From the NCBI GenBank assembly GCA_964479005.1, contig CAYZJA010000002.1, positions 128,001 to 192,000 of the forward strand: a stretch of 64,000 nt of DNA. The letters are read 5' to 3'. The notes under the pieces are model-generated. The model made no database searches. It saw nothing but the letters and a program-made list of their open reading frames with translations, and was not told the origin of the DNA. Positions 9,787 through 58,809 of the stretch are shown here, in pieces (positions within the stretch are counted from its first letter, which is position 1; every line of letters begins with the position of its first letter). Source of the DNA: an uncultured Candidatus Saccharibacteria bacterium (GTDB lineage Bacteria > Patescibacteriota > Minisyncoccia > UBA6257). The translations under genes were made by a program, and so were the position numbers.

Positions 9787-11490
9787 CTAGACTTCAATGA
9801 CAACTGGCAATACCATTGGGCGGCGCTGTGTTTTTTTAAACAGGAATAAACCTATCTCATTTCTTAAATTATTGCGGATATAACCTTCATTGAATGTATC
9901 TCCTTTTGTTGAACGGCTTACAATTTCCCTCACTAATTTTTTCGTTTGATTTATCAATTCTTTTGATTCTTTCATATAAACAAATCCTTGAGAAATAATT
10001 TCGGGATTATTATAAAGTAGTCCTGTTTTTCTATCCACCAAAGCAATGATGATAAAAATTCCATCCTTGGAAAGGGTTTGTCTTGCTCGAAGAACCACTT
10101 CTTTAATATCCCCCACACCTAATCCGTCAACCATTATATAGTTTGTAGGAACAAATTTTTCTGTTGCTGTTATTTTATTTTTAGTTAATTCAATTATTTG
10201 GCCGTTTGCTCCTGTTACAATATTTTGTTTGCCGATACCCAAGGATTCTGCTATTTCACTATGGAGTTTTAACATAGAAAAATGGCCGTGAATAGGCATA
10301 AAGAAATGTGGCTTGGTGAGATTAATCATCATCTTTGAATCATCTTGATAGCCATGCCCAGAAGAATGAATATCAACCATTTTATAGTGGTAGATATTAG
10401 CGCCTTGTTTTGCCAGATTGTCTTTTAGGTTTTGAACAGCCAATTCGTTTCCCGGAACAACAGAGGAAGAGAAAATAACGGTATCTCCTTTTTGTATCCT
10501 TAAATATTTATGTTCTCTATTCACTATTCTCATTAAAGTGGCTTCACTTTCACCTTGCGCGCCAGTACATAGTATTGTTAGCTTTTGCGGGTCAAGCCGA
10601 CTTGCTTCTTTCCAGTTGATTATAGTTCCTTTTTTAACACTTATGTATTTTAGTTTTTCCGCAATAGCTAAATTAGTTTTCATAGCATAACCTTGAATAA
10701 CAATTTTGCGATTATATTTTTCTGATAGCCAAATAGCTTGCTGAAGCCTGTTGATTAATGAAGCAAATGTGGCTAGTATGATTCTTCCTTTTGTTTGCGC
10801 AAAAAGAGTGTCTAAATTATCCATTATTGTTTTTTCAGAAACAGAATGTCCTGGATTTTCTATTCCAGTTGAGTCGGACATTAGAAGTTGTACGCCTTGG
10901 GAAGCAAGTGTGGCAATCCGTGATAAATCTGCTGGTTTATCACCAATTGGTTGGAAATCAAATTTAAAATCGGTTGCATACATAATTAATCCATGCGGTG
11001 TATTAATGGCTAATCCCAAAGTATCAGGTATGTTGTGGTTTAAATGGAATGGGGAAATTTTAAAAGGGCCTAATGTTGTGGATTTATTTGGGTTTATATC
11101 TTCAATATTCAATTTTTTTAGGCTAGGAAAATCTTCCTGCCTTTTTAAAATTATTCCACGGGTTAAAGGCGGGGCATAAATAGTGGGATAATTTAATTTA
11201 TTAATTAGATAAGGTATGGCTCCAATGTGGTCATAGTGGGCATGAGTGATAAAAACCCCTAATATTTTTTTCTCTGGATGGCTTGTTAAGTATTCAATGT
11301 TAGGAATAATAAAATCAATGCCCGGCATATCTTCATCAGGAAACTGTAGCCCCATATCTACAATCAGGACCTGATTCTCGTATTCAAAAAGAGTCATATT
11401 GCGGCCAATTTCTTCCAATCCTCCCAAAGGAATAATTTTTAATGGGGTTGTGGACGTTTTTGTTTTTTTATAAAATTTTTTACGTTCCAT
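9787..11490 (-). CDS. rnj: Ribonuclease J (metallo-beta-lactamase/beta-CASP RNase)
   Basis: HAHYDHIG metallo-beta-lactamase motif and beta-CASP region. Start placed at MERKKFYKK. The upstream 19 codons of the listed ORF lie over a hairpin/leader. Confidence 0.85.
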   Translation of the reverse strand: MERKKFYKKTKTSTTPLKIIPLGGLEEIGRNMTLFEYENQVLIVDMGLQFPDEDMPGIDFIIPNIEYLTSHPEKKILGVFITHAHYDHIGAIPYLINKLNYPTIYAPPLTRGIILKRQEDFPSLKKLNIEDINPNKSTTLGPFKISPFHLNHNIPDTLGLAINTPHGLIMYATDFKFDFQPIGDKPADLSRIATLASQGVQLLMSDSTGIENPGHSVSEKTIMDNLDTLFAQTKGRIILATFASLINRLQQAIWLSEKYNRKIVIQGYAMKTNLAIAEKLKYISVKKGTIINWKEASRLDPQKLTILCTGAQGESEATLMRIVNREHKYLRIQKGDTVIFSSSVVPGNELAVQNLKDNLAKQGANIYHYKMVDIHSSGHGYQDDSKMMINLTKPHFFMPIHGHFSMLKLHSEIAESLGIGKQNIVTGANGQIIELTKNKITATEKFVPTNYIMVDGLGVGDIKEVVLRARQTLSKDGIFIIIALVDRKTGLLYNNPEIISQGFVYMKESKELINQTKKLVREIVSRSTKGDTFNEGYIRNNLRNEIGLFLFKKTQRRPMVLPVVIEV

Positions 11491-11503: not shown

Positions 11504-11572
11504 CCCCCACACCATAACGAGCACTGAGTGCTTCGCACCAAATACAAAGTATGTGCTCATTTGGTGTGGGGG
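11504..11572 (-). promoter_or_regulatory. Structured hairpin region between tRNA-Leu and the rnj start (leader or processing structure)
   Basis: CCCCCACACCA ... TGGTGTGGGGG inverted repeat enclosing smaller palindromes (AGCAC-TGA-GTGCT). Confidence 0.4.
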
Positions 11573-11577
11573 TTTAG

Positions 11578-11663
11578 TGCCGCGGGTGGGATTTGAACCC
11601 ACATCCCGAGATTTCGGGACACGGTTCTGAACCGTGCGCGTCTGCCAATTTCGCCACCGCGGC
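11578..11663 (-). tRNA. tRNA-Leu (anticodon CAG), type II with long variable arm
   Basis: Reverse complement gives GCCGCGG...CACGG-TTCAGAA-CCGTG...GTGGGTTCAAATCCCAC...CCGCGGC-A. Cloverleaf read by hand. No encoded CCA. Confidence 0.8.
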
Positions 11664-13371: not shown

Positions 13372-13590
13372 TTAAATCAGGAAACAGATAATTGATAGAG
13401 CGATAAATAAACCCCCTAATATAATAGTGAATACAAAAATTGTTTTTTCCAAACCCCTTCTCGTACCATAGAATTGAGAAGATATTCCTCCTAATACTCC
13501 CATTCCTCCTCCTCGCTGTTGCAAAAGCACAAGAATTATAAGAAGGATACCGATAACGATTTGAGCAATAGCTAAATCAAATTGATTCAT
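13372..13590 (-). CDS. secG: Preprotein translocase subunit SecG
   Basis: 72 aa, two TM segments, with the Gly-rich loop LLQQRGGGMGVLGG typical of SecG. Confidence 0.6.
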   Translation of the reverse strand: MNQFDLAIAQIVIGILLIILVLLQQRGGGMGVLGGISSQFYGTRRGLEKTIFVFTIILGGLFIALSIICFLI

Positions 13591-13689
13591 AATTAAAATA
13601 TTCTATTTTAATTTCAACGTCCTTGAGCGAAGACACGTTAAACGTGGCGAAGCGAAAGGTTGTTATAATTGTTTAATTTTTAATCATCA

Positions 13690-14052
13690 CTATTTAATCC
13701 GATGTAAAAAAGAATTAAAAATACTAATAATAATGGATGCAGCTAACCAAGTTATAGGATACTGAATTACCAACACGGGCATGAAAATAGTCGCAGCTTT
13801 TAGCAGGATAATATTGATAATAAAGATAAAAATACCAAGAGTTATCCAAATGAGCGGGAGAAAAAGAATTCGTAAAATTGGTTTTATTAGTAAATTAAGA
13901 AGTGAAAGAATCAAAGCGAGAAGAATCAGTTGTTCTAATGTGCCCTGAAAATAGAAATCATTAAATAAATAATTTAATAATCTCTGGCAGAGCAAAATCG
14001 CCGCAATATTAAGGATAACACCAAAAAGAAGTCTCTTTAAAAAACGCATCAT
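13690..14052 (-). CDS. Small 4-TM membrane protein (phage-holin-4_2/YvlD-like family, tentative)
   Basis: 120 aa, four hydrophobic helices. Resembles the PF04020-type small membrane proteins. The call is weak. Confidence 0.35.
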   Translation of the reverse strand: MMRFLKRLLFGVILNIAAILLCQRLLNYLFNDFYFQGTLEQLILLALILSLLNLLIKPILRILFLPLIWITLGIFIFIINIILLKAATIFMPVLVIQYPITWLAASIIISIFNSFLHRIK

Positions 14053-14174
14053 TTAATAGGGGTATTATACGTTAATAAGAACAAAAAGTCAAAAGTAAGA
14101 GATTATTTTGGGCAAAGCCACGTTTAACGTGGCAAAGCGAGAAAAAAGGTTCTGCGAGCAAAGTGAGCAGGCTC

Positions 14175-18134: not shown

Positions 18135-18185
18135 ATTTGAGTTTTTTATCTTATTATCCTATTAAACTTCTTTTGGCTCCTTTTT

Positions 18186-18283
18186 TTATTATGAGCCGAA
18201 GGCGAATAACAAGGTTCTCGCGAGGCGGGGTTCTTATTATGAGCCGAAGGCGAATAACAAGGTTCTCGCGAGGCGGGGTTCTT
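18186..18283. repeat. 2 x 48-bp tandem direct repeat (TATTATGAGCCGAAGGCGAATAACAAGGTTCTCGCGAGGCGGGGTTCT)
   Basis: Perfect tandem duplication read from the sequence. It belongs to the AAGCGA..AAGGTTCT..GGTTCTTATTAT intergenic repeat family (see findings). Confidence 0.8.
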
Positions 18284-19082: not shown

Positions 19083-19127
19083 TAATTGTTTTAATTTTTT
19101 AAAATTTATGTGCCGCCACGTTTAACG

Positions 19128-19202
19128 TGGTGCCTGGGCGGTGAATCGAACACCGGACGCTTTGCTCTTCAAGCAAACGCTCTACCACTGAGCTACCCAG
19201 GC
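19128..19202 (-). tRNA. tRNA-Phe (GAA), CCA encoded
   Basis: Reverse complement gives GCCTGGGTAGCTCAGTGGTAGAGC-G-TTTGC-TTGAAGA-GCAAA...GGTGTTCGATTCACC...CCCAGGC-A-CCA. Confidence 0.85.
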
Positions 19203-19452: not shown

Positions 19453-19611
19453 ATACCACATGATGAATTCTATCAGTTTTTTTATTTTGAGTAAAGCGAG
19501 AAACAAGGTTCTCCTAAGTGAAGCGTAGGAGGTTCTTATTATTTTTCAAGAAAAATTTGAATTTCTTTATTTATTTTAATAAATAAACATGGTATTATTA
19601 AAGATATAATT

Positions 19612-24859: not shown

Positions 24860-25624
24860 TTATCCTCTTGCTAGAACTAAACCAATTACCTTTTTCGCAC
24901 CATTCTTTTTTAAGATTTTTGCCGCTTCCTGCATTGTTGCTCCAGAAGTATAAACATCGTCAATTAAAATTATCCATTTATTTTTAATTAGATTTAGATT
25001 AGAAATAGAAATTTGAAAAACATCTTTGGTATTTTTTTCTCTTTCAATAAAATTATTGATTTTTGCCTGTGGTGGATTATTTTTAATTCTGAGAAGAATT
25101 TTAGGATGAAAATTCAGAGAAAAATGAGAAGCAACAACTTTTGCCAATAATTCTGATTGATTAAATCCTCTTTGCCTTCTTTTCCTTGTATGTAATGGGA
25201 TAGGAATTAGTAATATATTCTTTTTATTCATTTCAGAAAAAAAGTTGGTTTCTTTTAAAAATCTTATCATTAAATCAGCCAGAGGTTTTTGCAATGAAAT
25301 AATTGGCTGATATTTAAAAAGATGAATAGTTTTTCTGATGATTGAATTTTTATAAAAAGAAACTACGCCCAAAGCGAATAAATGGGTTTTACAAAAACAA
25401 GAGCGTTTAGAAAAATTAGTTATTCTTTTCTTACAGATGGGGCAAATGAAAGAATAGTTAATTGGGATATTCTTTTGGCATTTTTTACAAAGCGGGTAAG
25501 AAAAATGGACTTCTTTTTTACAAGAAACACATTGCCAAGGGAAAAAAGTATCTAAAAGTAATTTTAAAAAACGGTGTCCCCGTTTAACGGGGCTATCACC
25601 GCGTTTGACGTGGTGGGGCATCAA
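24860..25624 (-). CDS. comFC: ComF family protein (ComFC-like phosphoribosyltransferase-domain competence protein)
   Basis: N-terminal double CxxC zinc finger (CVSCKK...CPICKK) and C-terminal PRTase motif IILIDDVYTSGATM. The exact start is uncertain; the first codons overlie a palindromic element. Confidence 0.75.
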   Translation of the reverse strand: MMPHHVKRGDSPVKRGHRFLKLLLDTFFPWQCVSCKKEVHFSYPLCKKCQKNIPINYSFICPICKKRITNFSKRSCFCKTHLFALGVVSFYKNSIIRKTIHLFKYQPIISLQKPLADLMIRFLKETNFFSEMNKKNILLIPIPLHTRKRRQRGFNQSELLAKVVASHFSLNFHPKILLRIKNNPPQAKINNFIEREKNTKDVFQISISNLNLIKNKWIILIDDVYTSGATMQEAAKILKKNGAKKVIGLVLARG

Positions 25625-25758
25625 AGATATAAATTGTTAAATTGTTCTATTGTTTATTGCTATTTGTTGGCATATCAAATATTATAGTATATAATATTAG
25701 TGTATCATATTTTGTATTTTTAAGCTTTAATCTTTGACTTTTGATTTTTATTTAATAT

Positions 25759-26817
25759 ATGGTTTTCAATTTTTTTAAACAGAATATTTTTTTAGGCATA
25801 GACATTGGAACCACTTCAATTAAATTAGTGGAATTGCGAAAAACCAGACAAAAGATAGAATTGACCAATTATGGAATTTTGGAAAAGTATGGACATTTGG
25901 AAAGGATCAATGACGCTATTCAAACTAATAGTTTTAAATTATTAGAAGAAAGCACTGCTTTGCTTTTGAAGCAATTGATAGAGAAATCAAAAACGAAGAA
26001 TCGGAAAACCTATATGGCTTTACCAAGTTTTTCTGGGTTTGTTTCAATTATGGAACTTCCAGAAATGCCAGATAAAGAACTTACCAAAGCAGTAAACTTT
26101 CAAGCAGGACAGTATATCCCCATGCCATTACAGGAAACAACTTTAGATTGGCAAATTATAGAAAGAACAAGTGGTAAAATTTTTGTTCTTTTAATGGCTG
26201 TACCAACCGATATTGTTAAAAGATATATCCAAAGTGCAGAACTGGCTAAAATTAATTTAAAAGGTTTGGAATTAGAAACCGTGGCCATTGCTCGCTTATT
26301 AGGCAAAAAAGAAAAGGGCGTAGTGGCTTTAGTGGATATTGGAGGAAGAAGTACGTCTATTAATATAATGGACAAGGGGGCATTGAGAACAAGCCATAAT
26401 GTAGATACTGCTGGCGGAGATTTTACCCAAGTTATTAGTAGTGGGTTGGGGATTAATCCTTTCAGAGCCGAGGAATTAAAAAGGGCATATGGTTTGAATA
26501 TTCAGGCGCGCGGGGAAGTTAAAATTACAAATCTTTTAATGCCATTATTAGATGTTATAAAAAGAGAAACAGAAAAAGCTATTAATAATTACTTTTTAAG
26601 AACTAAGAAGAAAGCGGAGAAAGTAATTTTAACTGGTGGAGGCGCGAATCTTCAGGGATTGGAAGATTATTATTCTAAACAATTGGCTTTGCCTGTTATT
26701 AAAGGTGATCCTTTTTCTTGGGGATTGATTTCTTATAATCCAAATCTTTCTCCAGTTATGAAGGATATTGGCCCAAGTTTAACCAGTGCTTGCGCTGTAG
26801 TATTTAAAGATATTTAA
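25759..26817 (+). CDS. pilM: Type IV pilus assembly protein PilM
   Basis: Actin-like ATPase fold. N-terminus LGIDIGTTSIKLVEL is typical of PilM. Confidence 0.85.
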   Translation: MVFNFFKQNIFLGIDIGTTSIKLVELRKTRQKIELTNYGILEKYGHLERINDAIQTNSFKLLEESTALLLKQLIEKSKTKNRKTYMALPSFSGFVSIMELPEMPDKELTKAVNFQAGQYIPMPLQETTLDWQIIERTSGKIFVLLMAVPTDIVKRYIQSAELAKINLKGLELETVAIARLLGKKEKGVVALVDIGGRSTSINIMDKGALRTSHNVDTAGGDFTQVISSGLGINPFRAEELKRAYGLNIQARGEVKITNLLMPLLDVIKRETEKAINNYFLRTKKKAEKVILTGGGANLQGLEDYYSKQLALPVIKGDPFSWGLISYNPNLSPVMKDIGPSLTSACAVVFKDI

Positions 26818-40301: not shown

Positions 40302-41351
40302 TTATTTGTTTTTAATGTAGTTTCCTCCATCTGTATTTTTAATAAACTCTTTTAATTCTAAAGTAGTGAGAATAACAAGAGTCTCTTTAGGGGAAAGATT
40401 AGAGATTTCTATAATTTTGTCAATAGCAAGAGAATTTTCCTTAGGCAGAAGTTGGTAAATTTTTTCTTCTTGTTTATTGTCAAATTTTAAGCTTGGAGAG
40501 TCTTTTATTATTGGTAAAGTATATTGAATATTTAATTCTTCAAAAATATCTTCAATTTGGGAAACTAACTTTGCCCCTTGCTTAATCAAATTATTGGTTC
40601 CAATAGAGTTCTTATTGAATATTGAGCCGGGAATAGCAAAAACCTCTCTGTTTTGTTCTAATGCAAATTGCGCAGTGATTAAAGCACCGCTTTTCTCCGG
40701 AGCCTCTATTACCACAGTAGCCAAAGAAAGACCGCTGATTATTCTATTGCGCCAAGGAAAGTAACGCCTTAAAGCAGGAGCTTCTAAAGGATATTCAGTA
40801 ATTATCGCGCCATGTTTGGCTATTTCTTTGGATAATCTTTTATTGCTATAAGGATAGATATTGTTTAATCCTGATCCTAAAACAGCGATTGTTTTTCCTT
40901 GGTTTTCTAAAGCAGATTTATGGGCTATAGTATCAACGCCATAAGCTAGACCGCTTACGATAATAAAATTATGACGCGTTAATTCTTGTACTAATTTTTC
41001 TGTAACCAATTTTCCGTACGCGCTTATTTTTCTTGTTCCAACAATGGCTATACGCGGCGCTTCTTCAGGAATTTCTCCTTTAATATAAAAAGATGAAGGA
41101 GAATAAGATATTTCTTTTAATAAGTCCGGATATTTATTATCCGAAGAAATAATAAAACCAATCTTTTGTTCTTCTATTTCTTGCCATTCTTTATAAGGAT
41201 CAATATCTTCTTTTTGGCTAACGCTTAATTTTTCCCAAGCGCTTTTAAAAGTTTGGCTGGAAGATAAAAGAGGAAATAACTTAAGGAAGTTATTTTTAAA
41301 AGCTACGTTAAGGGCATTCAAATAAATCTTTTCTTCATGGTGGGGCATCAT
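40302..41351 (-). CDS. dprA: DNA processing protein DprA/Smf
   Basis: Rossmann-like DprA core (GLAYGVDTIAHKSALENQGKTIAVLGSGL) and a C-terminal winged-helix-like tail. Confidence 0.85.
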   Translation of the reverse strand: MMPHHEEKIYLNALNVAFKNNFLKLFPLLSSSQTFKSAWEKLSVSQKEDIDPYKEWQEIEEQKIGFIISSDNKYPDLLKEISYSPSSFYIKGEIPEEAPRIAIVGTRKISAYGKLVTEKLVQELTRHNFIIVSGLAYGVDTIAHKSALENQGKTIAVLGSGLNNIYPYSNKRLSKEIAKHGAIITEYPLEAPALRRYFPWRNRIISGLSLATVVIEAPEKSGALITAQFALEQNREVFAIPGSIFNKNSIGTNNLIKQGAKLVSQIEDIFEELNIQYTLPIIKDSPSLKFDNKQEEKIYQLLPKENSLAIDKIIEISNLSPKETLVILTTLELKEFIKNTDGGNYIKNK

Positions 41352-41427
41352 ATATAAATTATATCACAGCATTATTATTCTGTCATTTTTATTGTTTTTT
41401 CCTTAATGTTGAGATATACTAAATCTA

Positions 41428-41961
41428 ATGGGAGATTTCAAAAAGAGATTAATTTTAATTCTAAGCATTTCCCTATCTATCATTTTAGTCCTTGGTGGAT
41501 TATTTTATTATTTTTACGATGATGTTTCGAAAAGAGTAGTAAAGATTAATTCCTACAGGCAGGAACTTGCTTCCCGAGCGTCAATTCTAAACAGGATTTA
41601 TGTATTAGAACAAGAACATACAAAATCCTTGCCGTATTTTGGAAAATTGACAGAAGCTTTGCCAACTGAAACAGAAATGGTTAACCTAGAAGAAGTTTTG
41701 AAAAATTTAGCCAGTCAAAATGATCTAAATTTAAGCTTTCGATTCGGACTGTTAAACGAAGCAACTGAACAAGAGCCAAAGAGTTATAGTTTCAATTTAA
41801 TTCTTACAGGAGAGAAAAACAATGTTTTAAAATGGATGGATGGTTTGCAGAAATTAAATTATACAATTCGCGTGGACCAAATAGAATTAAGCCAAACCAG
41901 TTCTGGCGGAGGCAAATTTTATTATAGTGTAAAAATTTTAGGAAGAGTTTATCTTCGTTGA
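41428..41961 (+). CDS. Hypothetical bitopic membrane protein (PilO/GspM-like fold possible)
   Basis: N-terminal TM helix; no motif. Confidence 0.4.
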   Translation: MGDFKKRLILILSISLSIILVLGGLFYYFYDDVSKRVVKINSYRQELASRASILNRIYVLEQEHTKSLPYFGKLTEALPTETEMVNLEEVLKNLASQNDLNLSFRFGLLNEATEQEPKSYSFNLILTGEKNNVLKWMDGLQKLNYTIRVDQIELSQTSSGGGKFYYSVKILGRVYLR

Positions 41962-42194: not shown

Positions 42195-42266
42195 GGGCGA
42201 CTAGCTCAGTGGTAGAGCGCGTCTCTGATAAAGACGAGGTCACAAGTTCGATCCTTGTGTCGCCCA
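42195..42266 (+). tRNA. tRNA-Ile (GAT)
   Basis: GGGCGAC-TA-GCTC-AGTGGTA-GAGC-G-CGTCT-CTGATAA-AGACG-AGGTC-ACAAGTTCGATCCTTGT-GTCGCCC-A. Confidence 0.85.
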
Positions 42267-42281
42267 CAATTTTCCTCCATC

Positions 42282-42357
42282 GGGCCCGTAGCTTAATTGG
42301 TAGAGCGCCTGTGTTGCATACAGGAGGTTGTCGGTTCGAGTCCGATCGGGTCCACCA
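42282..42357 (+). tRNA. tRNA-Ala (TGC), G3:U70, CCA encoded
   Basis: GGGCCCG-TA-GCTT-AATTGGTA-GAGC-G-CCTGT-GTTGCAT-ACAGG-AGGTT-GTCGGTTCGAGTCCGAT-CGGGTCC-A-CCA. Confidence 0.85.
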
Positions 42358-42488
42358 CGTTAGACGTGGTCCACCACGTTAAACGTGGTGGACTTCAAAA
42401 TTTCTCCTTGCTTGACTAAGCTATATCTTATATAATAGAAGTATAAAAATTAAAGGTCGATAAAACTAAAATTTAAAATATAAAAAAT

Positions 42489-43172
42489 ATGTTTAATACT
42501 ATAGCTCAAGCTAGTTCCACTGCTTTGTTTGATTTATGGAATGGATTCATTTTGTTTTTACCTACTTTAATAGGAGGGTTTATAGTTTTTATTGTAGGTG
42601 TAATAATTGGTAATGGTATTGCCCAATTAGTAGAGAAATTGATTGATCTCTTAAAAATTGATCCAATTTTGGAAAAGGTTGGATTTAAACAAGTTACTGA
42701 TAAAGCTGGCATTCGTTTAGACGTAGGATTTTTTGTAGGTCAGATTGTCAAGTGGTTAATTATCCTGTCGTTCTTAGTGGCTGCTTGCAATATCTGGAAT
42801 TTGTCAGCTGTTGGTGATTTTATCAGAAGCATAGTTAATTATCTTCCAAATGTTTTAGTCGCGATCTTGATTCTTTTAGCGGCTATTGTTTTGGGAGAAT
42901 ATTTTGCTAAGTTTGTCCGCGCTTCTGTCGCAGGAGCTGGATTAAAATATCAGCACTTTCTAAGCGGTGTATCCCGTTGGGTATTTGTTATATTTGGACT
43001 CATAGCAGCTTTATCTCAATTACAAGTTGCTCCTTATATTATCAATACCTTCTTTACGGGAATTGTGGCTATGATGGCAATAGCCGGAGGTTTGTCATTC
43101 GGTTTAGGAGGAAAAGATTTAGCACGTGAATTATTGGCAAAGTTGAAAGGAGATTTAGAAGGAGGAGAGTAA
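42489..43172 (+). CDS. Membrane protein with two conserved-TM-helix repeats (MscS-like TM_helix type, tentative)
   Basis: Two similar halves, each with paired TM helices. No cytoplasmic MscS domain. Confidence 0.45.
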   Translation: MFNTIAQASSTALFDLWNGFILFLPTLIGGFIVFIVGVIIGNGIAQLVEKLIDLLKIDPILEKVGFKQVTDKAGIRLDVGFFVGQIVKWLIILSFLVAACNIWNLSAVGDFIRSIVNYLPNVLVAILILLAAIVLGEYFAKFVRASVAGAGLKYQHFLSGVSRWVFVIFGLIAALSQLQVAPYIINTFFTGIVAMMAIAGGLSFGLGGKDLARELLAKLKGDLEGGE

Positions 43173-43175
43173 GAC

Positions 43176-43203
43176 TTGACAAATTATTTTTCTTTGCTAT
43201 AAT
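43176..43203 (+). promoter_or_regulatory. Sigma70-type promoter P1 (TTGACA-16 nt-TATAAT) upstream of 23S
   Basis: Consensus hexamers read directly from the sequence. Confidence 0.6.
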
Positions 43204-43287
43204 GGAAGTGCTGTTGTCTTGAGGTATATAGCTTGCTATATATTAAAGGGCAGCAGCATTTTTTTATACACAAAACTCAATAAGGGG

Positions 43288-43315
43288 TTGACTTTTAAAA
43301 AATATTTACTATAAT
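43288..43315 (+). promoter_or_regulatory. Sigma70-type promoter P2 (TTGACT-16 nt-TATAAT) upstream of 23S
   Basis: Near-consensus hexamers read directly. Confidence 0.55.
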
Positions 43316-44129
43316 TAAAATACTTCTATTTTAATTGCAACGTTCTTGATTTATAATCAGAAAGTTGCAATAATAAGAAGGCTGAATAAAATATGAAAAT
43401 CTTTAAAGAAAACTCTCAGAAACAAAGAAGTTGGTAGGTGTATTACACACGTATTTTAACGCCACCACTTCATGGTGGCTTTTTTAATCCAAGATTTTCT
43501 GACAGAGAGTTCACAAGAGATGACTGAACTTTGAAAACGACTGTCTTTAGTTTGTCTTTTCACTAAAGATGGGAAAGTTGTATTAAGGGCAGATGGTGGA
43601 TGCCTTGACACAGTAAGGCGATGAAGGACGCGGCGTAGCTGCGATAAGCCTCGGGAAGGTGCGTAGTAACCTTTGATCCGGGGATTTCCGAATGGGGCAA
43701 CCCATTCCGATTAATATCGGAATATCCTGATTTTAATAATTAGGAGGCGTACCTGGGGAAGTGAAACATCTCAGTACCCAGAGGAAAAGAAAACAATAAA
43801 ATACATTTTACTACTGTTGTTTAGTACTGAATAGTAGCTAAATGTATTTGTGATTCCTTGAGTAGCGGCGAGTGAAAGAGGAGAAGCCTAAACCAAGCAT
43901 TCAATTTATTGAGTATTTGGGGTTATAAGGTGGATGCGCGGAAGCTTCGGCTTTCAAAATTTAAATCATAATTAATTAAATTATCTGGAAAGATAAACCA
44001 CAGAGGGTGAAAGTCCCGTAGATGAAAATTATTATTGAATTTAGTATCTTTTCTTAATTACCTCGGGGACAGATAACCTTGAGGGAAGGATCCGGAACTA
44101 TACCGGAAAGGCTAAATACTTACTGTGAT

Positions 44130-44175
<46 letters not shown>

Positions 44176-45733
44176 GAGGGGAGTGAAATAGAACCTGAAA
44201 CCATTTTGCCTACAAGCAATCGAAGTCGAGCACTCAGTTTTCTGAGTGCTGGATAACGGTGTGCCTATTGAAGAATGAGCCGACGAGTTTATATCTACTG
44301 CTTAGATTAATTTCGTAAATCGAAAGTAGTCATAGGGAAACCGAGTGTTAATAGCGCGTCATTAATTCTTCTTTTTATCTCGGTTTTCGGGATAAAAAGA
44401 TTAATTAAAATGTAGTGGATATGAGACCCGAAGCCAGGCGAGCTTGCCATGACCAGGATGAACCCCATAGAAATATGGGTGGAGGTCCGAACCCGTGAGC
44501 CGTTCAATACTCTGGGATGAGTTGTGGTAAGGAGTGAAAAGCTAATCGAGCCTGGGAATAGCTGGTTCTCCCCGAAATAGCTTTAGGGCTAGCGGGCTAT
44601 TTATCCTTATGGGGGTAGAGCACTGGATGGTGTGTATAGGGCGAAAGCTCAGCTCACCAATCAAACTCCGAATACCATTAAGGTTATGATAGCCTAGTTA
44701 GACTATGGGGGCGAAGCTCCATGGTCAAAAGGCAACGAATCCAGATCGCAGTTTAAGGTCCCTAAATTTTGGTTAAGTGCTGTCAAAGGTAGTAATTTAC
44801 CATAGACAATTAGTAGGTTGGCTTAGAGGTAGCCATCCTTTAAAGAGTGTGTAACAACTCACTATTCGATCTTGATCTTCGGATCAAGGTGGTAAATTGC
44901 GCCGAAAATGTATCGGGGCTAAAACCAAATACCGAAAACGCGAATTTATCCCAACTAAGGTTGGGGTGAGTGGTAGGGGAGCGTTTCTTAAGCATTGAAG
45001 TTCATAACGTGAGTTTGGATGGAGCTTAAGGAAGTGAGAATGTCGGCATGAGTAACCACAATCCTGATGAGAATTCAGGACTCCGTAAACCTAAGGTTTC
45101 TTTGGCAATGACAATCAGCCAAAGGTTAGGCGGTCCTAAGGCAATGGCGAAAGCTGCAGCCGATGGACAGCCGGTTAATATTCCGGCCCTTCCATTTTTT
45201 TCGATGGGATGACGGAGTGTAGTAGATCGAGCATCTTAGTGGTCTGATGTCTTCGACCGAGAGTGTGTGTCAGGCAAATCCGGCGCATGGTCCCGATTTA
45301 TCGGGACAACTTTCAGGGTAGAAGCGAATTAAGGTTTTTCCTTAATAAGTTGATCGAGCGCACTTCCAAGAAAAATCTCTAAGAATAGGAAAATGGAATC
45401 CGTACCGTAAACCAACACAGGTAGGTGAGGCGAGTAGCCTCAGGAGAACGAGTGATTCCTCGTTAAGGAACTCGGCAAAAAAGCGGGCGTAACTTCGGGA
45501 TAAGCCCTTCCTACCTAAATTTTGCTTGCAAAGTTTAGGCAGGGCGCAGCGAAAGTTTCCCTGGCGACTGTTTACCAAAAACACAGGTCCCTGCGAAACC
45601 GTAAGGTGATGTATAGGGGCTGATGCCTGTCCGATGCCAGAAGGTTAAGAGCGTCGGTCATTTCGATTTATCGGAATGGCTAAGTGCTTGAAGCCCTGGT
45701 CAATGACAGCGATAACTATAATCGTTCTAAGGT

Positions 45734-46449
45734 GGGATACTGCCTTAGTAAAATTCGGCTATATGCTGGAACATCTGGTGTATCCAAGACTACTATGGTA
45801 TAATATGACCATAAAAATATGAGTTATAATATACCAAGTAACAATGTTTTTGGCGCAGACAATCAGCAGGAAAGACTCAGAATTGCTTATTGGATTTTAG
45901 GCTTTACTGATGGTGAAGGATGTTTTTCAATTGCTGTGATAGAGAACAAAACTACTAAATTTGGGAAACAGATTTTTCCTGAATTTGTAATTACACAAGG
46001 AGAAAAAAGTTTAACTGCATTAAAGAAAATTAAAAAATTCTTTGGTTGCGGAAACATTTTTATCAACAAACGATATGATAATCATAATGAGAACTTATAT
46101 CGTTATTGTGTACGTTCTTTACATGACTTAGATAAGAAAATAATTCCGTTTTTTGAAAAATATCAACTCCAAACGTATAAGCAAAATGATTTTTTAATTT
46201 TTAAAAAAGTCATAAAATTCATGATAAAGAAAGAACATTTAACTGAAAAAGGCAGAAAGAAAATTCTTGTCCTCCTCAGTAAAATGAACCATAGAAAAAA
46301 GCGATTTTGAGAATCCTCAGAGACTATATGCCGAACTCCAATATTATATTGGAGAAGATATAGTCCGAACTGCATAGCGATATGCAGAAATAAGCAGAAA
46401 TGTTTATTCGACCTTTAGATTGATTTTCTAGAGGTTAGTAACAAAATTG
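45734..46449 (+). mobile_element. Group I intron in 23S at the I-CeuI-type site (E. coli ~L1923; ...CTAAGGT^AGCGAAATTCC...)
   Basis: Exon sequence resumes exactly with AGCGTAATTCCTTGTCGGGTAA. The intron follows an exon U and ends with G. Confidence 0.75.
45819..46310 (+). CDS. Intron-encoded single-motif LAGLIDADG homing endonuclease
   Basis: LGFTDGEGCF motif. 163 aa, entirely inside 23S intron 1. Confidence 0.8.
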   Translation: MSYNIPSNNVFGADNQQERLRIAYWILGFTDGEGCFSIAVIENKTTKFGKQIFPEFVITQGEKSLTALKKIKKFFGCGNIFINKRYDNHNENLYRYCVRSLHDLDKKIIPFFEKYQLQTYKQNDFLIFKKVIKFMIKKEHLTEKGRKKILVLLSKMNHRKKRF

Positions 46450-47110
46450 AGCGTAATTCCTTGTCGGGTAATTTCCGACGTGCATGAAAGGTATAACGAC
46501 TGGGGAACTGTCTCAACGAGGAGCTCGGTGAAAATGCGTGTCCAGCGAAGACGCTGGGTACCCGCAGCAAGACGAAAAGACCCTAGAAGCTTTACTACAG
46601 CTTGGTATTGAATTTAGTTTTAATCTGCGTAGCGTAGCGGGGAGACTTTGAAGTTTCGCTTTCGGGCGAGATGGAGTCGCCAATGAAACACCCGTCTTTT
46701 TGAAGCTATGTTCTAATCCCGACGGCAAAAACGTCGTGAGACAGTGCCTGGTGGGTAGTTTTCGTGGGGCGCGATCCTCCTAAAGAGTAACGGAGGAGCC
46801 TACTAAGGTTGGCTATCTGCCAATGGAAACGGCAGAGGTAGTGTAAAGGCAAAAGCCAGCTTTATAGTGAGGGAGACATCCCAAACTATTGCGAAAGCAG
46901 AGCTTAGTGACCCGATACGTCATTGTAGAATGCGTAGAGACGTCGGATAAAAGCTACTCTAGGGATAACAGGCTGGTGGAGCCCGAAAGTTCATATCGAC
47001 GGCTCCGCTCGGCACCTCGATGTCGGCTCATCTTATCCTGGGGCTGAAGAAGGTCCCAAGGGTTTGGCTGTTCGCCAATTAAAAAGATACGCGAGCTGGG
47101 TTCAGACCGT

Positions 47111-47838
47111 CGATTTGGCGGCCTAGAAGAGTAATCTTCTATGGAAAAAGTTGACTCATATAGATGAAACCCTATTACATAAATTGTATTTTAACCTGTC
47201 GTGTGGTAGGATAATATCTAGGGAAGTTTAACTTTTTTAAACGTGAAACATCTTTCAAAGACTCAATGTGCTTATATCGCTGGGTTTTTAGATGGTGACG
47301 GAAGTCTTTATATTAGGATTAAACCTAATAAGGATTATCGGTTTAACTATCAAATAGCCCCCAATATAGTATTTTATCAATCCCAAAAAGGATGGTTATT
47401 TCTTCAGAAAATTAAAAAAATGATTAGCGCTGGTTATATGAGAAAAAGAAATGACGGGATTGCAGAATATATTATTGGTGATGTAGCAACAATGTCTTCT
47501 TTGTTGAAGCAAATATCTTCATTTCTGATATTTAAAAAGAAACAAGCACAATTGTTTCTAAGAATTCTTCAAAAGAAAACAAAGGTAAAAACAAAAGAAG
47601 ATTTTATAGCTTTAGCTATAATGATTGATAAATTGGAAAAATTAAATTATTCCAAAAAAAGGCGCATTACTTCGCAAGTTGTTATCAACACGTTAAAAAA
47701 GTTGTAACCCCTTAGAGACTTGTTCTGGTTTTTACCAGAACGGAATAGAGATTTTTAATCTCTATTAATACGTCAACCTCCTAATAAAATATTAGGATGA
47801 TGGTATAGTCCATACATAAAGTAATTTATGATTATATG
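47111..47838 (+). mobile_element. Group I intron in 23S at the I-CreI-type site (E. coli ~L2593; ...ACCGU^CGUGAGACAG...)
   Basis: Exon sequence resumes with CGTGAGACAGGTCGG. The boundary has a 2-nt ambiguity (CG duplicated). Confidence 0.75.
47243..47707 (+). CDS. Intron-encoded single-motif LAGLIDADG homing endonuclease
   Basis: IAGFLDGDGSL motif. 154 aa, inside 23S intron 2. Confidence 0.8.
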   Translation: MKHLSKTQCAYIAGFLDGDGSLYIRIKPNKDYRFNYQIAPNIVFYQSQKGWLFLQKIKKMISAGYMRKRNDGIAEYIIGDVATMSSLLKQISSFLIFKKKQAQLFLRILQKKTKVKTKEDFIALAIMIDKLEKLNYSKKRRITSQVVINTLKKL

Positions 47839-47980
47839 CGTGAGACAGGTCGGCCTCTATCTGCTGTGGGCGTTCGATACTTGAGGAGAGCTGATCGCAG
47901 TACGAGAGGACCCGATTGGACGAACCTCTGGTCTACCGGTTGTCCTGCCAAGGGCATCGCCGGGTAGCTATGTTCGGAAG

Positions 47981-48013
<33 letters not shown>

Positions 48014-48175
48014 CACTCCAAGATTAGGTATCGTTTCCCATTTATGGGAGTGAGATTCCTGGAAGATGACCAGGTTGATAGGCTCTAGGTGGAAGTCCAG
48101 TAATGGATTAAGCCGAGGAGTACTAATTATCAAAGCAACTTTCCTATCTTTAGTGAAAAGAAATATTTTAAAATT

Positions 48176-48284
48176 CCGCTGGTGTTTTACTTAATTATGG
48201 TCCACCTCTTCCCATTCCGAACAGAGAAGTGAAAGTAATTAAGCCCGATGATACTCTTTTGGGGAAAGTAGGGTATGCCAGCGG
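48176..48284 (+). rRNA. rrf: 5S rRNA
   Basis: CCGCTGGTG...CCCATTCCGAACAGAGAAGTGAAAG...GCCAGCGG with helix I closing, followed by a T-run. Confidence 0.8.
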
Positions 48285-51007: not shown

Positions 51008-52018
51008 ATGAAACAAGTGCAATTTATCAAAATCTCATTATTCATCATTGTTTGCGTATTAGTGCTATTTTTTTATATATTAGTTAATTTTTCATTAACT
51101 TGTCAGGGAGAGTGTAATTTTTCAATAGAGAAAGGAGAAAACTTAAAAAGTATTGCCGATCGTTTAAGAAATCAAAAATTTGTTTCTTCATCTATGTTGT
51201 TTCAATTTTACGTAAAAATAAAAGGTCAGGAAAAAAACATCAAAGCAGGAGATTATTCATTTATTTCACCTTTAACGATTACTAACATAACCGAGATTAT
51301 TACTAATGGAAAATTAACTAATAATAGTTTCCTCATAGCAGAAGGGGAGACAATGTTAGAGATAGAGGAAAATCTAAGAGAAAAAGGTCTAATTGATGCA
51401 TTTTCATCATTAAAAGAATGGAAAACAGGGGATTTTCTTGAAAAAAAATATTTTGATATTTTTTCTGAAATTCCTACCGATGTTTCATTAGAAGGGTATT
51501 TATTTCCTGATTCTTATCATTTACCCCAGGGATTAGAAGAAGAAGAAATTCTTTCAATGTTTATAGATAATTTTGTCGCAAAAACTGAAAATGATTTATT
51601 TTTTGAGATAAAAGAGCAAAAAAGAAGTTTTTATGAAATTTTAACAATGGCTTCTTTGTTGGAAAAAGAAGTTCGCGAAGAAACAGACAAAAGAATGGTA
51701 GCAGATATTCTTTGGAGGAGATTGGATACGAATTTTCTTCTTCAAGTTGACGCAACAATTTGTTATGCTGAATTTCAATCATTTAAAAAATGTTCTCTTA
51801 CCCGTGAATTATTTAAATTAGATTCTCCTTATAACACTTATCTTTATAAAGGATTACCGCCTACACCTATTAATAATCCTGGAATAGAATCAATACAAGC
51901 AGCTTTAAATCCATTAGTAAATGATTATTGGTATTATATGACTGACAGAGAAACAGGAAAAACTATTTTTTCTGAAACATTTGATGAACACTTAGAATCC
52001 CGCGGGAAATATCTATAG
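51008..52018 (+). CDS. mltG: Endolytic murein transglycosylase MltG (YceG family)
   Basis: N-terminal TM; YceG-like domain with LQVDATICYA...SPYNTYLYKGLPPTPINNPG. Confidence 0.8.
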   Translation: MKQVQFIKISLFIIVCVLVLFFYILVNFSLTCQGECNFSIEKGENLKSIADRLRNQKFVSSSMLFQFYVKIKGQEKNIKAGDYSFISPLTITNITEIITNGKLTNNSFLIAEGETMLEIEENLREKGLIDAFSSLKEWKTGDFLEKKYFDIFSEIPTDVSLEGYLFPDSYHLPQGLEEEEILSMFIDNFVAKTENDLFFEIKEQKRSFYEILTMASLLEKEVREETDKRMVADILWRRLDTNFLLQVDATICYAEFQSFKKCSLTRELFKLDSPYNTYLYKGLPPTPINNPGIESIQAALNPLVNDYWYYMTDRETGKTIFSETFDEHLESRGKYL

Positions 52019-57803: not shown

Positions 57804-58007
57804 ATGAATCCACAGCAATTGTACCATAAACAGTATGCCGAGCATGCCTTAATAATTAATCATGAATCTTTTTTCAAGAAAACCTTTCATAAGTTTAATG
57901 TCCATAGAAGAAATGTAGCAATTTCTTTACTAGAGAGAGGAAATAATTTACTTGATATTGGTTGTGGAGAAGGGTCACTTTTATTAAAGGCAAGAAATAA
58001 ATATTAA
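57804..58007 (+). pseudogene. N-terminal fragment of a class I SAM-dependent methyltransferase
   Basis: Motif I LLDIGCGEGSL is present. The ORF ends 15 aa later, at the junction with the duplicated mltG segment. Confidence 0.55.
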
Positions 58008-58809
58008 AGCGGGGGATTATCGATTTATTTCGCCGCTAACAATTGCCAAAATAACCGAGGCTATTACTAATGGAAAATTAAGCAATAATCATAGTTTTCT
58101 CATAACAGAAGGGGAAACAATGCTGGAGATAGAGGAAAATTTAAAAGAGAAAGGTTTAATTGACAAATCTGCCTCATTAAAAGAATGGAAAATAGGAGAT
58201 TTTCTTGAGAAAAAACATTTTGATATTTTTTCTCAAATTCCTTCAGATGCTTCATTAGAGGGCTTTTTATTTCCTGATTCTTATCATTTACCCCAAGGAT
58301 TGGAAGAAAAAGAAATTCTTTCAATACTTATTGATAATTTTGTCGCAAAAGCCCGTGGTGAGTTTAGTCAAACCACTAAAAATGATTTATTTTTTGATAT
58401 TAAGGAGCAAAAAAGAAGTTTTTATGAAATTTTAATAATAGCTTCTTTGTTGGAAAAAGAAGTTCGTGTAGAGACAGATAAAAGAATGGTGGCAGATATT
58501 CTTTGGAGGAGATTGGATACAAATTTTCCTCTTCAGGTAGATGCAACAATATGCTATGCAAAATATGAATCATTTAAAAATTGTTCTCTTACCCGTGAAT
58601 TATTTAAATTAGATTCTCCGTACAATACTTATATTTATAAAGGATTGCCTCCTACGCCTATTAATAATCCCGGAATAGAATCAATACAAGCGGCTTTAAA
58701 TCCATTGGCAAATGATCATTGGTATTATATGACTGACAGAAAAACAGGAAGAACAGTCTTTTCTGAAACATTTGACGAGCATTTAGAATTTCGCGGAAAA
58801 TATCTATAA
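58003..58809 (+). pseudogene. Truncated duplicate of mltG (C-terminal ~260 codons; lacks TM/N-terminus)
   Basis: Strong nucleotide and protein similarity to 51241..52018 (e.g. LEIEENL[K/R]EKGLID, LQVDATICYA, SPYNTY[I/L]YKGLPPTPINNPGIESIQAALNP). Confidence 0.7.

Follow-up and report, generated by a model that had tools for sequence, protein, structure and literature searches.

A conserved nucleotide box close to the dprA and comFC start codons as a putative cis-regulatory signal for competence in a Patescibacteria lineage

Known competence regulons make use of short DNA elements, such as the cin-box of streptococci (TACGAATA, the promoter of sigmaX/ComX), the CRP-S/Sxy sites of Pasteurellaceae and Vibrionaceae and the ComK boxes of Bacillus. 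The cin-box is located at about -10 upstream of late competence genes, and CRP-S is a 22-bp palindrome with a TGCGA-N6-TCGCA core. DNA uptake sequences (DUS/USS) are found in hundreds to thousands of copies genome-wide. In the competence pathway, DprA and ComFC handle ssDNA in the cytoplasm. CPR/Patescibacteria conserve both of them along with type IV pili and with ComEC, which is encoded by the third of the core com genes in CPR bacteria, and Saccharibacteria have been shown to undergo natural transformation (PMC10633639); a literature search retrieved no description of competence regulation in the lineage considered here, nor of the box reported below.

The window, i.e. the whole stretch of 64,000 nucleotides that was analysed, is AT-rich (about 32% GC) and belongs to a Paceibacteria/Minisyncoccia bacterium (CPR, Patescibacteria) that has not been cultured. 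The closest homologues of its DprA and ComFC are labelled Candidatus Pacebacteria, Paceibacterota or Minisyncoccia in the source records, identical copies of the two genes are carried by JGI metagenome contigs, and no 16S rRNA gene is present within the window. The comFC gene is divergent from pilM-pilN-pilO-pilB, with pilM at 25759; dprA precedes topA and diverges from a PilO-like gene at 41428. The 15.7 kb separating the boxes of the two genes contain core genes (topA, a relA/spoT-family gene, parAB and pilMNO/B) and do not represent an island. In nearly all relatives with called neighbours, comFC and dprA are likewise found head to head with pilus-assembly genes, with a comFC-pilM spacing of about 55 to 138 nt; the exception is the dprA of L119/L120, which has parA upstream. 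None of comEA, comEC, recA and ssb was recognised in the annotated parts of the window and of the related loci. The coordinates of the features discussed here are collected in the Table; all promoters and terminators are consensus or folding predictions.

Table. Features of the comFC and dprA loci, with positions given along the window.
Feature	Position	Strand	Remarks
comFC CDS	24860..25621	-	253 aa from ATG at 25621; Pfam Pribosyltran and DZR_2; homologues named ComF family protein
dprA CDS	40302..41348	-	348 aa from ATG at 41348; Pfam DNA_processg_A and WHD_DprA
comFC start box ATGCCCCACC (start codon and C-rich box)	25612..25621	-	18 unique relatives have ATGCCCCRYCG there
dprA start box ATGCCCCACC	41339..41348	-	Next base is A, giving CCCCACCA, versus CCCCRCCG in most relatives
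AATTTATAT copies	25627..25635 (comFC); 41352..41360 (dprA)	-	Judged to lie outside the element
Predicted dprA promoter ATGACA-17-TG-n-TATAAT	41358..41386	-	Consensus scan, 11/12 matches, extended -10
36-nt in-frame insertion in comFC, encoding HVKRGDSPVKRG	25577..25612	-	Flanked by CACC direct repeat; boundaries may slide by up to 4 nt
Predicted hairpin 1, CACCACG-TCAAA-CGCGGTG	25597..25615	-	3' half of the box serves as its 5' arm; antiterminator-like
Predicted terminator-like hairpin, GCGGTG-ATAG-CCCCGTTAAACGGGG-A-CACCGT, then T run (U6)	25566..25602	-	Mutually exclusive with hairpin 1

The original prediction was that comFC and dprA share an element of about 25 nt across their start codons. 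The shared sequence is indeed present in both genes as located, reading aatttatatCTTTGATGCCCCACCACG at 25635..25609 in comFC and aatttatatATGATGCCCCACCATG at 41360..41336 in dprA, and it is not a chance occurrence. When up to two mismatches are allowed, the 16-mer is found in the window only at these two sites, with an expectation of 0 (100 shuffles). The identity of the 16-mer is not complete, however, since comFC has TTG-ATG and not ATG-ATG, which corresponds to one mismatch. The extent of the element, AATTTATAT...ATGATGCCCCACCAYG, had instead to be redrawn at both ends. Its upstream word, AATTTATAT, is an ordinary AT-rich word, with six copies in the window versus 5.7 expected, and it is absent upstream of comFC or dprA in the relatives; in dprA it shares bases with the predicted -10 hexamer and with the spacer leading to the start site, and in comFC it belongs to the 5' UTR, downstream of the predicted promoters. 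At the 3' end, the CACG of comFC is not homologous to the CATG of dprA, because CACG is part of an insertion that is missing in close relatives. Only one ATG is present there in the relatives, which identifies the ATGs at 25621 and 41348 as the real starts, and the homologous core common to both genes is ATGCCCCACC. In many relatives another word, TTGCCAAAT, is found upstream of comFC and dprA alike; it was excluded from the element, because RCCAAAT is common in coding DNA and the word is absent from the genes of the window. At the dprA of the relatives, TTGCCAAAT corresponds to the -35 hexamer of a predicted promoter (TTGCCA-17-TAAAAT).

Conservation in relatives, proposed as a check on the element, was found for this core, which is kept at the starts of both genes across a clade of Paceibacteria. 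The conserved core is ATG(N0-2)CCCCRCCG, of which the window dprA has a weaker form, CCCCACCA, with A as the last base. Among comFC genes, 18 unique 5' ends read T-ATG-CCC-CRY-CGT-TTT-TT, with a single T substitution in L101, and the start ATGCCCCRYCGTTTTTT persists where protein identity has dropped to about 50-57%. For dprA, 8 unique 5' ends were compared, plus two more; relatives, those at about 50-57% identity included, have ATGCCCCACC followed by A, C, T or G, and one lineage has ATGCCTCACCAA. This lineage, together with the A in place of G at the end of the window dprA box, indicates that the box tolerates changes. In one distant genome, whose DprA and ComFC are 56% and 57% identical to those of the window, the same 12-mer, ATGCCCCACCGT, starts both genes, which lie on one 128-kb contig. 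The lineage sample is modest, with about ten independent dprA and fewer than 20 comFC, and the sequences are related by descent.

Within the roughly 0.5 Mb sampled, the box is also specific for these two genes, and the alternative that it represents a generic repeat, spread over unrelated gene starts, did not hold there. On both strands of 516 kb of (redundant) sequence, CCCC[AG]CCG occurs only at the starts of dprA and comFC and at two other sites, and one or two chance matches are what we estimate from base composition; since the 8-mer is not dispersed, it cannot be identified with a DUS/USS. Moreover, among ORFs of at least 50 aa in the window and in 283 kb of related loci, only comFC and dprA start with ATGCCCC. 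Among the matches listed, the box is absent from every dprA in 1.2 Mb of other phyla and other CPR lineages, a negative control obtained by scanning contigs with a DprA alignment and very general peptide patterns and composed mostly of distant phyla, L003 and L004 being the useful ones. The pilus genes of the window (pilM, the pilO-like gene and pilB) do not carry the box. The occurrence of ATGCCCCGCC at 11177 on the minus strand is an out-of-frame coincidence within an RNase J-like gene.

The box is translated, and its conservation might reflect an N-terminal peptide, MPH(R/Q), common to DprA and ComFC and acting, for example, as a docking or degradation signal. Among the 120 best homologues of each protein, a M(M)P[HR] start is found in 81 for DprA and in 44 for ComFC, at identities as low as about 50%, and in ComFC it is nearly always MP[HR]RF; furthermore, the two proteins reportedly cooperate on incoming ssDNA (PMC9005727). 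The same start regions, however, provide several arguments against a protein-level motif. A dprA sub-clade (L126, L128 and L129) encodes MDPTEEK, MNPAEEK and MTPTEEK from ATGGACCCCACCGAA, ATGAACCCCGCCGAA and ATGACCCCCACCGAA, respectively: the three genes begin with ATG-GAC-CCC-ACC-GAA, ATG-AAC-CCC-GCC-GAA and ATG-ACC-CCC-ACC-GAA, and CCCCRCCG is intact in all of them, shifted by 2 nt. Since the peptide differs (M-D/N/T-P-T/A-E) though CCCCRCCG is kept in another frame, the box survives as nucleotides. In addition, residue 4 of DprA, following MPH, is occupied by chemically unrelated amino acids (Q34/R23/H12/L6/P5/C1), which have in common only a C at the first codon position, 80 out of 81 being encodable by CNN codons; the codons found there in the sequenced loci are CAT, CCA, CTA, CGT and CAA. 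Finally, synonymous sites are fixed for codons that are rare in the genome: the box is built from CCC, CAC and CGT, which represent 8.5% of Pro, 18.5% of His and 16.5% of Arg codons, respectively, and 16 of 16 sequences have CCC as the second, Pro codon of comFC, whereas other invariant Pro, His and Arg columns of dprA and comFC mostly have CCT, CAT and AGA. The protein-level reading is already disfavoured, indeed largely refuted, and we regard it as very improbable; a shared MPH peptide can arise as a by-product of selection on nucleotides. At the level of sequence comparison, the box of dprA and comFC is shown to be conserved as nucleotides and not as peptide, and it is very probably functional as a nucleotide element, one that is particular to this pair of genes.

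As the cin-box, CRP-S and the ComK box do, this short sequence marks dprA and comF genes as one set for DNA uptake and processing. Differently from those elements, which lie upstream at a fixed distance to the transcription start, it is placed 0-2 nt after the start codon and its sequence is unrelated. Indeed, the cin-box TACGAATA was not found, even at one mismatch, in the 140 nt upstream of comFC and the 90 nt upstream of dprA, and neither a full CRP-S site nor a TGCGA/TCGCA half-site is present upstream of the two genes. The coordination of known competence regulons through DNA elements, together with the head-to-head position of both genes relative to pilus-assembly genes in almost all relatives with called neighbours, would agree with a DNA-level operator, or an initial-transcribed-sequence signal, controlling dprA, comFC and perhaps the divergent pilus genes. 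The promoters predicted for dprA in the window and in L126, L128 and L129 also place the box at about +4 to +13, where an effect at the DNA level fits equally well. In the window, the -10 hexamer is predicted to end 7 nt ahead of the first ATG, with a start site at about 41351 that would generate a leaderless AUGAUGCCCC mRNA; leaderless dprA transcripts are predicted in L126, L128 and L129 too (TTGCCA-17-AATAAT-6-ATG), and in L123 the predicted promoter is more than 100 nt upstream. Across these loci the offset of the box from the AUG is constant, at 0-2 nt, with predicted promoters located from 0 to more than 100 nt upstream; the position of the box follows the ATG, not the predicted promoters or the divergent gene. 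The box is moreover 8 nt long, asymmetric and devoid of a second half-site, and it lies inside the coding sequence, all features that fit poorly with an operator, which we consider unlikely. Of the common regulatory element initially proposed, then, a conserved, gene-specific box that fits cis-acting control is retained, but nothing shows an operator or a shared leader.

The position next to the AUG also raises the question of an intrinsic translation signal working without a trans factor, either a C/A-rich downstream enhancer or a slippery CCC-C codon dependent on m1G37-tRNAPro and EF-P. CA-rich sequence immediately downstream of the start codon is described to enhance translation in E. coli, for leadered and leaderless mRNAs alike (Martin-Farmer and Janssen 1999, as cited in PMC9031893); however, a generic unstructured enhancer needs no exact 8-mer ending in CCG. 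Most genes of the genome lack a Shine-Dalgarno sequence (a Shine-Dalgarno-like sequence is found in only 7 of 45 window genes) and some dprA promoters predict leaderless mRNAs, two points in favour of such a signal, but it would be used by only two of the 45 Shine-Dalgarno-poor genes of the window. As for slippage, PMC6335274 indicates AUG-CCC-C as the arrangement most prone to +1 frameshifting and strongly m1G37-dependent, and most of the sequences compared here have the same AUG-CCC-C arrangement as the m1G37 (TrmD)/EF-P-dependent CCC-C second codon (Gamper et al. 2015, cited therein). For slippage a CCC-C at codon 2 would suffice, but ACCG shows equal conservation, and the quadruplet alone cannot explain the conservation of the four further bases, RCCG; the C run of L126, L128 and L129 occupies codon 3, in the other frame, so that, unlike a slippery codon, the box has survived a change of reading frame. 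An intrinsic signal of either type appears quite unlikely. Indeed, survival of the exact 8-mer through the frame change makes the operator, the intrinsic enhancer and slippage all fit less well.

The most likely of the readings, to which we give even odds, is that the box acts at the RNA level, in the translation-initiation region of the dprA and comFC mRNAs. Action on RNA is suggested by the fact that the box is tied to the AUG and not to the promoter, and that it is short, asymmetric, C-rich, without conserved structure and an outlier in an AU-rich initiation region. It stands out because second codons are normally A-rich and initiation regions AU-rich. No conserved secondary structure was predicted around it in 12 comFC and 8 dprA sequences, and in the insertion-free alleles it is found in an unstructured, AU-rich context without a Shine-Dalgarno sequence. 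The box might represent a shared recognition site for a trans-acting factor, which would set the synthesis of DprA and ComFC jointly; candidates would be a small RNA with a G-rich seed, GGYGGGG, or a protein binding C-rich RNA. To our knowledge, the box has no complementarity to the 16S 3' tail or to the 530 loop. It resembles small-RNA target sites in being short, GC-rich, single-stranded, located at codons 2-4 and common to functionally related mRNAs. [quoted passage not shown] 2008, as cited in PMC7769764), and the box, predicted to be accessible and at +4 to +13, falls within it, in the position expected for a small-RNA target (from about -20 to +15 relative to the start codon). Differently from known target sites, no complementary GGYGGGG small RNA was found in the sampled loci, and no conserved intergenic GGYGGGG was detected in them (about 20-64 kb per genome, small parts of each genome). 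Two candidate sequences, CCCCACCG, which lies beside L100 tRNA genes, and GGTGGGGG, which precedes an L118 gene, look like chance or Shine-Dalgarno-like occurrences. A comparison with Rfam yielded only tRNA and rRNA at the gathering threshold in the window; in the comFC and dprA regions the best match had E = 0.12 and all matches were far below gathering scores.

The original prediction had also pointed out an overlap, in comFC, between the shared sequence and a group of palindromes. The CACC of the box belongs to one arm of a predicted hairpin, but the palindromes themselves constitute a separate, lineage-specific insertion of 36 nt. The N-terminus of the window ComFC is (M)MPH-HVKRGDSPVKRG-HRFLKL, and the insertion is missing from ComFC relatives at 88-91% identity, which start with MP[HR]RFLKL. 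L118, whose ComFC is 58% identical, has an insertion at the same site with an identical 32-nt core, and there the arms of hairpin 1 are perfectly paired (CACCGCG/CGCGGTG); between L118 and the window, comFC identity is 90% over the first 90 nt, versus 66% for the whole CDS. A search of about 1.8 Mb of retrieved sequence that tolerated up to 7 substitutions located the 32-nt core only in the comFC of the window lineage and of L118. As it is confined there to comFC 5' ends, the insertion does not behave as a dispersed repeat.

Two conformations, nearly isoenergetic, are predicted for this region: one with hairpin 1 and a small second hairpin, at -18.1 kcal/mol (ViennaRNA), and an extended terminator-like one, at -17.4 kcal/mol. 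The terminator-like hairpin is the minimum-free-energy structure of a 121-nt region (z = -3.0), and it was missed by a simple terminator consensus scan, probably owing to its internal loop. In these folding models, the insertion displays the features of an intrinsic terminator or attenuator, i.e. a GC-rich hairpin, a U run and a competing upstream hairpin. It is similar to 5'-leader attenuators in that its two hairpins exclude each other and a U run comes after the downstream one; differently from them, the insertion is located within the CDS (codons 3-19), is translated, is only 36 nt long and is present in some lineages only, its fold being a predicted one. In the window comFC, as in L118, the insertion would add a second layer of control: the 3' half of the box, CACC, would pair with GGUG to form hairpin 1, which would compete with the terminator hairpin and its U run, and occupancy of the box would favour termination. 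The complete scheme, a CPR-specific post-transcriptional signal in which an AUG-adjacent box is read by a small RNA or a protein and is associated, in some lineages, with a translated terminator/antiterminator switch, is put forward as a tentative proposal.

The hairpins of the insertion have loops of the CG-TTAAA-CG type, and the same loops are found after tRNA genes and between genes in this lineage; such hairpins come directly after the CCA that is encoded in the tRNA-Phe and tRNA-Ala genes, and a relative has one in an intergenic gap. The palindromes had been described as tRNA-end-like, an impression that can be explained by same-loop hairpins following tRNA-encoded CCA. The insertion recalls REP/BIME and MITE repeats, as it provides GC-rich hairpins in an AT-rich genome, with kin hairpins after tRNAs and between genes, and as other repeat families are inserted at the same comFC site in relatives; unlike REP/MITE, its exact 32-nt core is never dispersed. 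In particular, L084 and L102 carry a different, MITE-like in-frame insertion with CCCCCACACC/GGTGTGGGGG ends after the T run, and L130 an in-frame insertion of a AAGGTTCTGC...-type repeat, also after the T run. Since different lineages carry different structured in-frame insertions after the T run, the comFC 5' end is an insertion hotspot.

These three kinds of small structured insertions, and the occurrence of CG-TTAAA-CG hairpins after tRNA genes, could suggest that the box itself is due to chance, is the scar of a mobile palindrome or is the remnant of a tRNA 3' end, similar to an att site; the window copies, in fact, read GCCCCACCA, resembling an acceptor end plus CCA. This likeness to a tRNA end did not extend beyond the window: the relatives have CCCCRCCG, CCCCACCC or CCCCACCT, with CCG, CCC or CCT in place of CCA. 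Moreover, no T-arm or other tRNA sequence is present upstream, ARAGORN recognised no tRNA, and the genes of the 15.7-kb interval are core genes, so that a tRNA 3' end serving as the att site of a 15.7-kb island was rejected. Above all, the box is present in insertion-free alleles, in many lineages and in both genes. Its conservation in insertion-free relatives contradicts an origin by chance, scar or tRNA remnant, which, as far as the alleles compared can tell, is already refuted and to which we assign a negligible probability.

On these comparative grounds, the most suitable interpretation of the conserved, gene-specific box is that of a new cis-regulatory signal, serving the DNA-processing arm of competence in a CPR lineage. 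From it, joint control of DprA and ComFC at or near translation initiation is predicted, and its sequence can be used both as bait to capture the regulator and as a pattern to search for other members of the regulon. If the switch in comFC is true, it would represent an unusual attenuator inside an open reading frame; if the post-transcriptional reading is true, the box would be the first element described to regulate natural competence in Patescibacteria.

Several families of short repeated sequences are present in the window, and some of them also occur at the competence genes dprA and comFC of relatives. The MITE-like family with terminal inverted repeats CCCCCACACC/GGTGTGGGGG is found as an in-frame insertion at the 5' end of comFC in two of the loci fetched for comparison (L084 and L102) and also upstream of dprA in a third, L003. 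A second, small family, carrying AAGGTTCTCGCGAGGCGGGG / AAGGTTCTGCCGAGCAAAGCGAGGCAGG, is located between convergent genes; related sequences occur near 14070-14110 and as an inserted copy at the 5' end of comFC in L130. The holin-like ORF is bracketed by ~35-nt direct repeats whose core is CACGTTAAACGTGG, and a 54-nt promoter-like segment 5' of it has 72% identity to a segment upstream of the 23S rRNA (43296-43349).

Hairpins of the type NNNCG-TTAAA-CGNNN are found at tRNA genes: the encoded CCA of tRNA-Phe contains the start of one, and 3' of tRNA-Ala they form a tandem pair, with two copies of TCCACCACGTTARACGTGG. Words resembling CGTTAAACG are over-represented, with 19 occurrences where 7.3 would be expected; the hairpins may be tRNA trailers or terminators typical of the lineage.

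Features of the window
Feature	Position	Details
MITE-like element, ~70 nt	11504-11572	adjoins tRNA-Leu (11577-11663)
NNNCG-TTAAA-CGNNN hairpins	19116-19130 (-), 42355-42392 (+), 14118-14132, 13636-13644	
Holin-like ORF, 120 aa	within 13573-14140	Pfam Phage_holin_4_2
48-nt repeat in tandem	18183-18278	AAGGTTCTCGCGAGGCGGGG / AAGGTTCTGCCGAGCAAAGCGAGGCAGG family; further copy 19477-19524
tRNA-Ile and tRNA-Ala, 23S rRNA downstream	42195-48284	
LAGLIDADG endonuclease ORFs	45819-46310, 47243-47707	in the 23S region
Duplicated segment, ~660 nt	51222-51883, 57986-58674	80-90% identity

No 16S gene is found in the 64-kb window; the 23S match extends over 3.57 kb, the model being 2.9 kb long. Unlinked rRNA genes with introns are common in CPR bacteria, and the layout of the region, with its LAGLIDADG ORFs, is consistent with this arrangement.

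The motif TT(G/A)CCAAAT is recurrent 5' of both competence genes in many relatives (dprA loci L003, L004, L123, L126, L128 and L129; comFC loci L083-L103) and absent from the window's own copies. In dprA of relatives it is compatible with a -35 hexamer (TTGCCA-17-TAAAAT); in comFC it lies 21-23 nt 5' of the ATG, without a matching -10.

The duplicated copies, spaced 6.8 kb apart, lie within a region of glycosyltransferase and sugar-nucleotide genes. Among all 45 gene starts in the window, a Shine-Dalgarno-like sequence is found at only seven, five of them in the sugar-metabolism region at 52-59 kb. Since in several genes a TATAAT box is placed 10-20 nt or less from the ATG, the sequence suggests that initiation without a Shine-Dalgarno sequence, or without a leader, is widespread.
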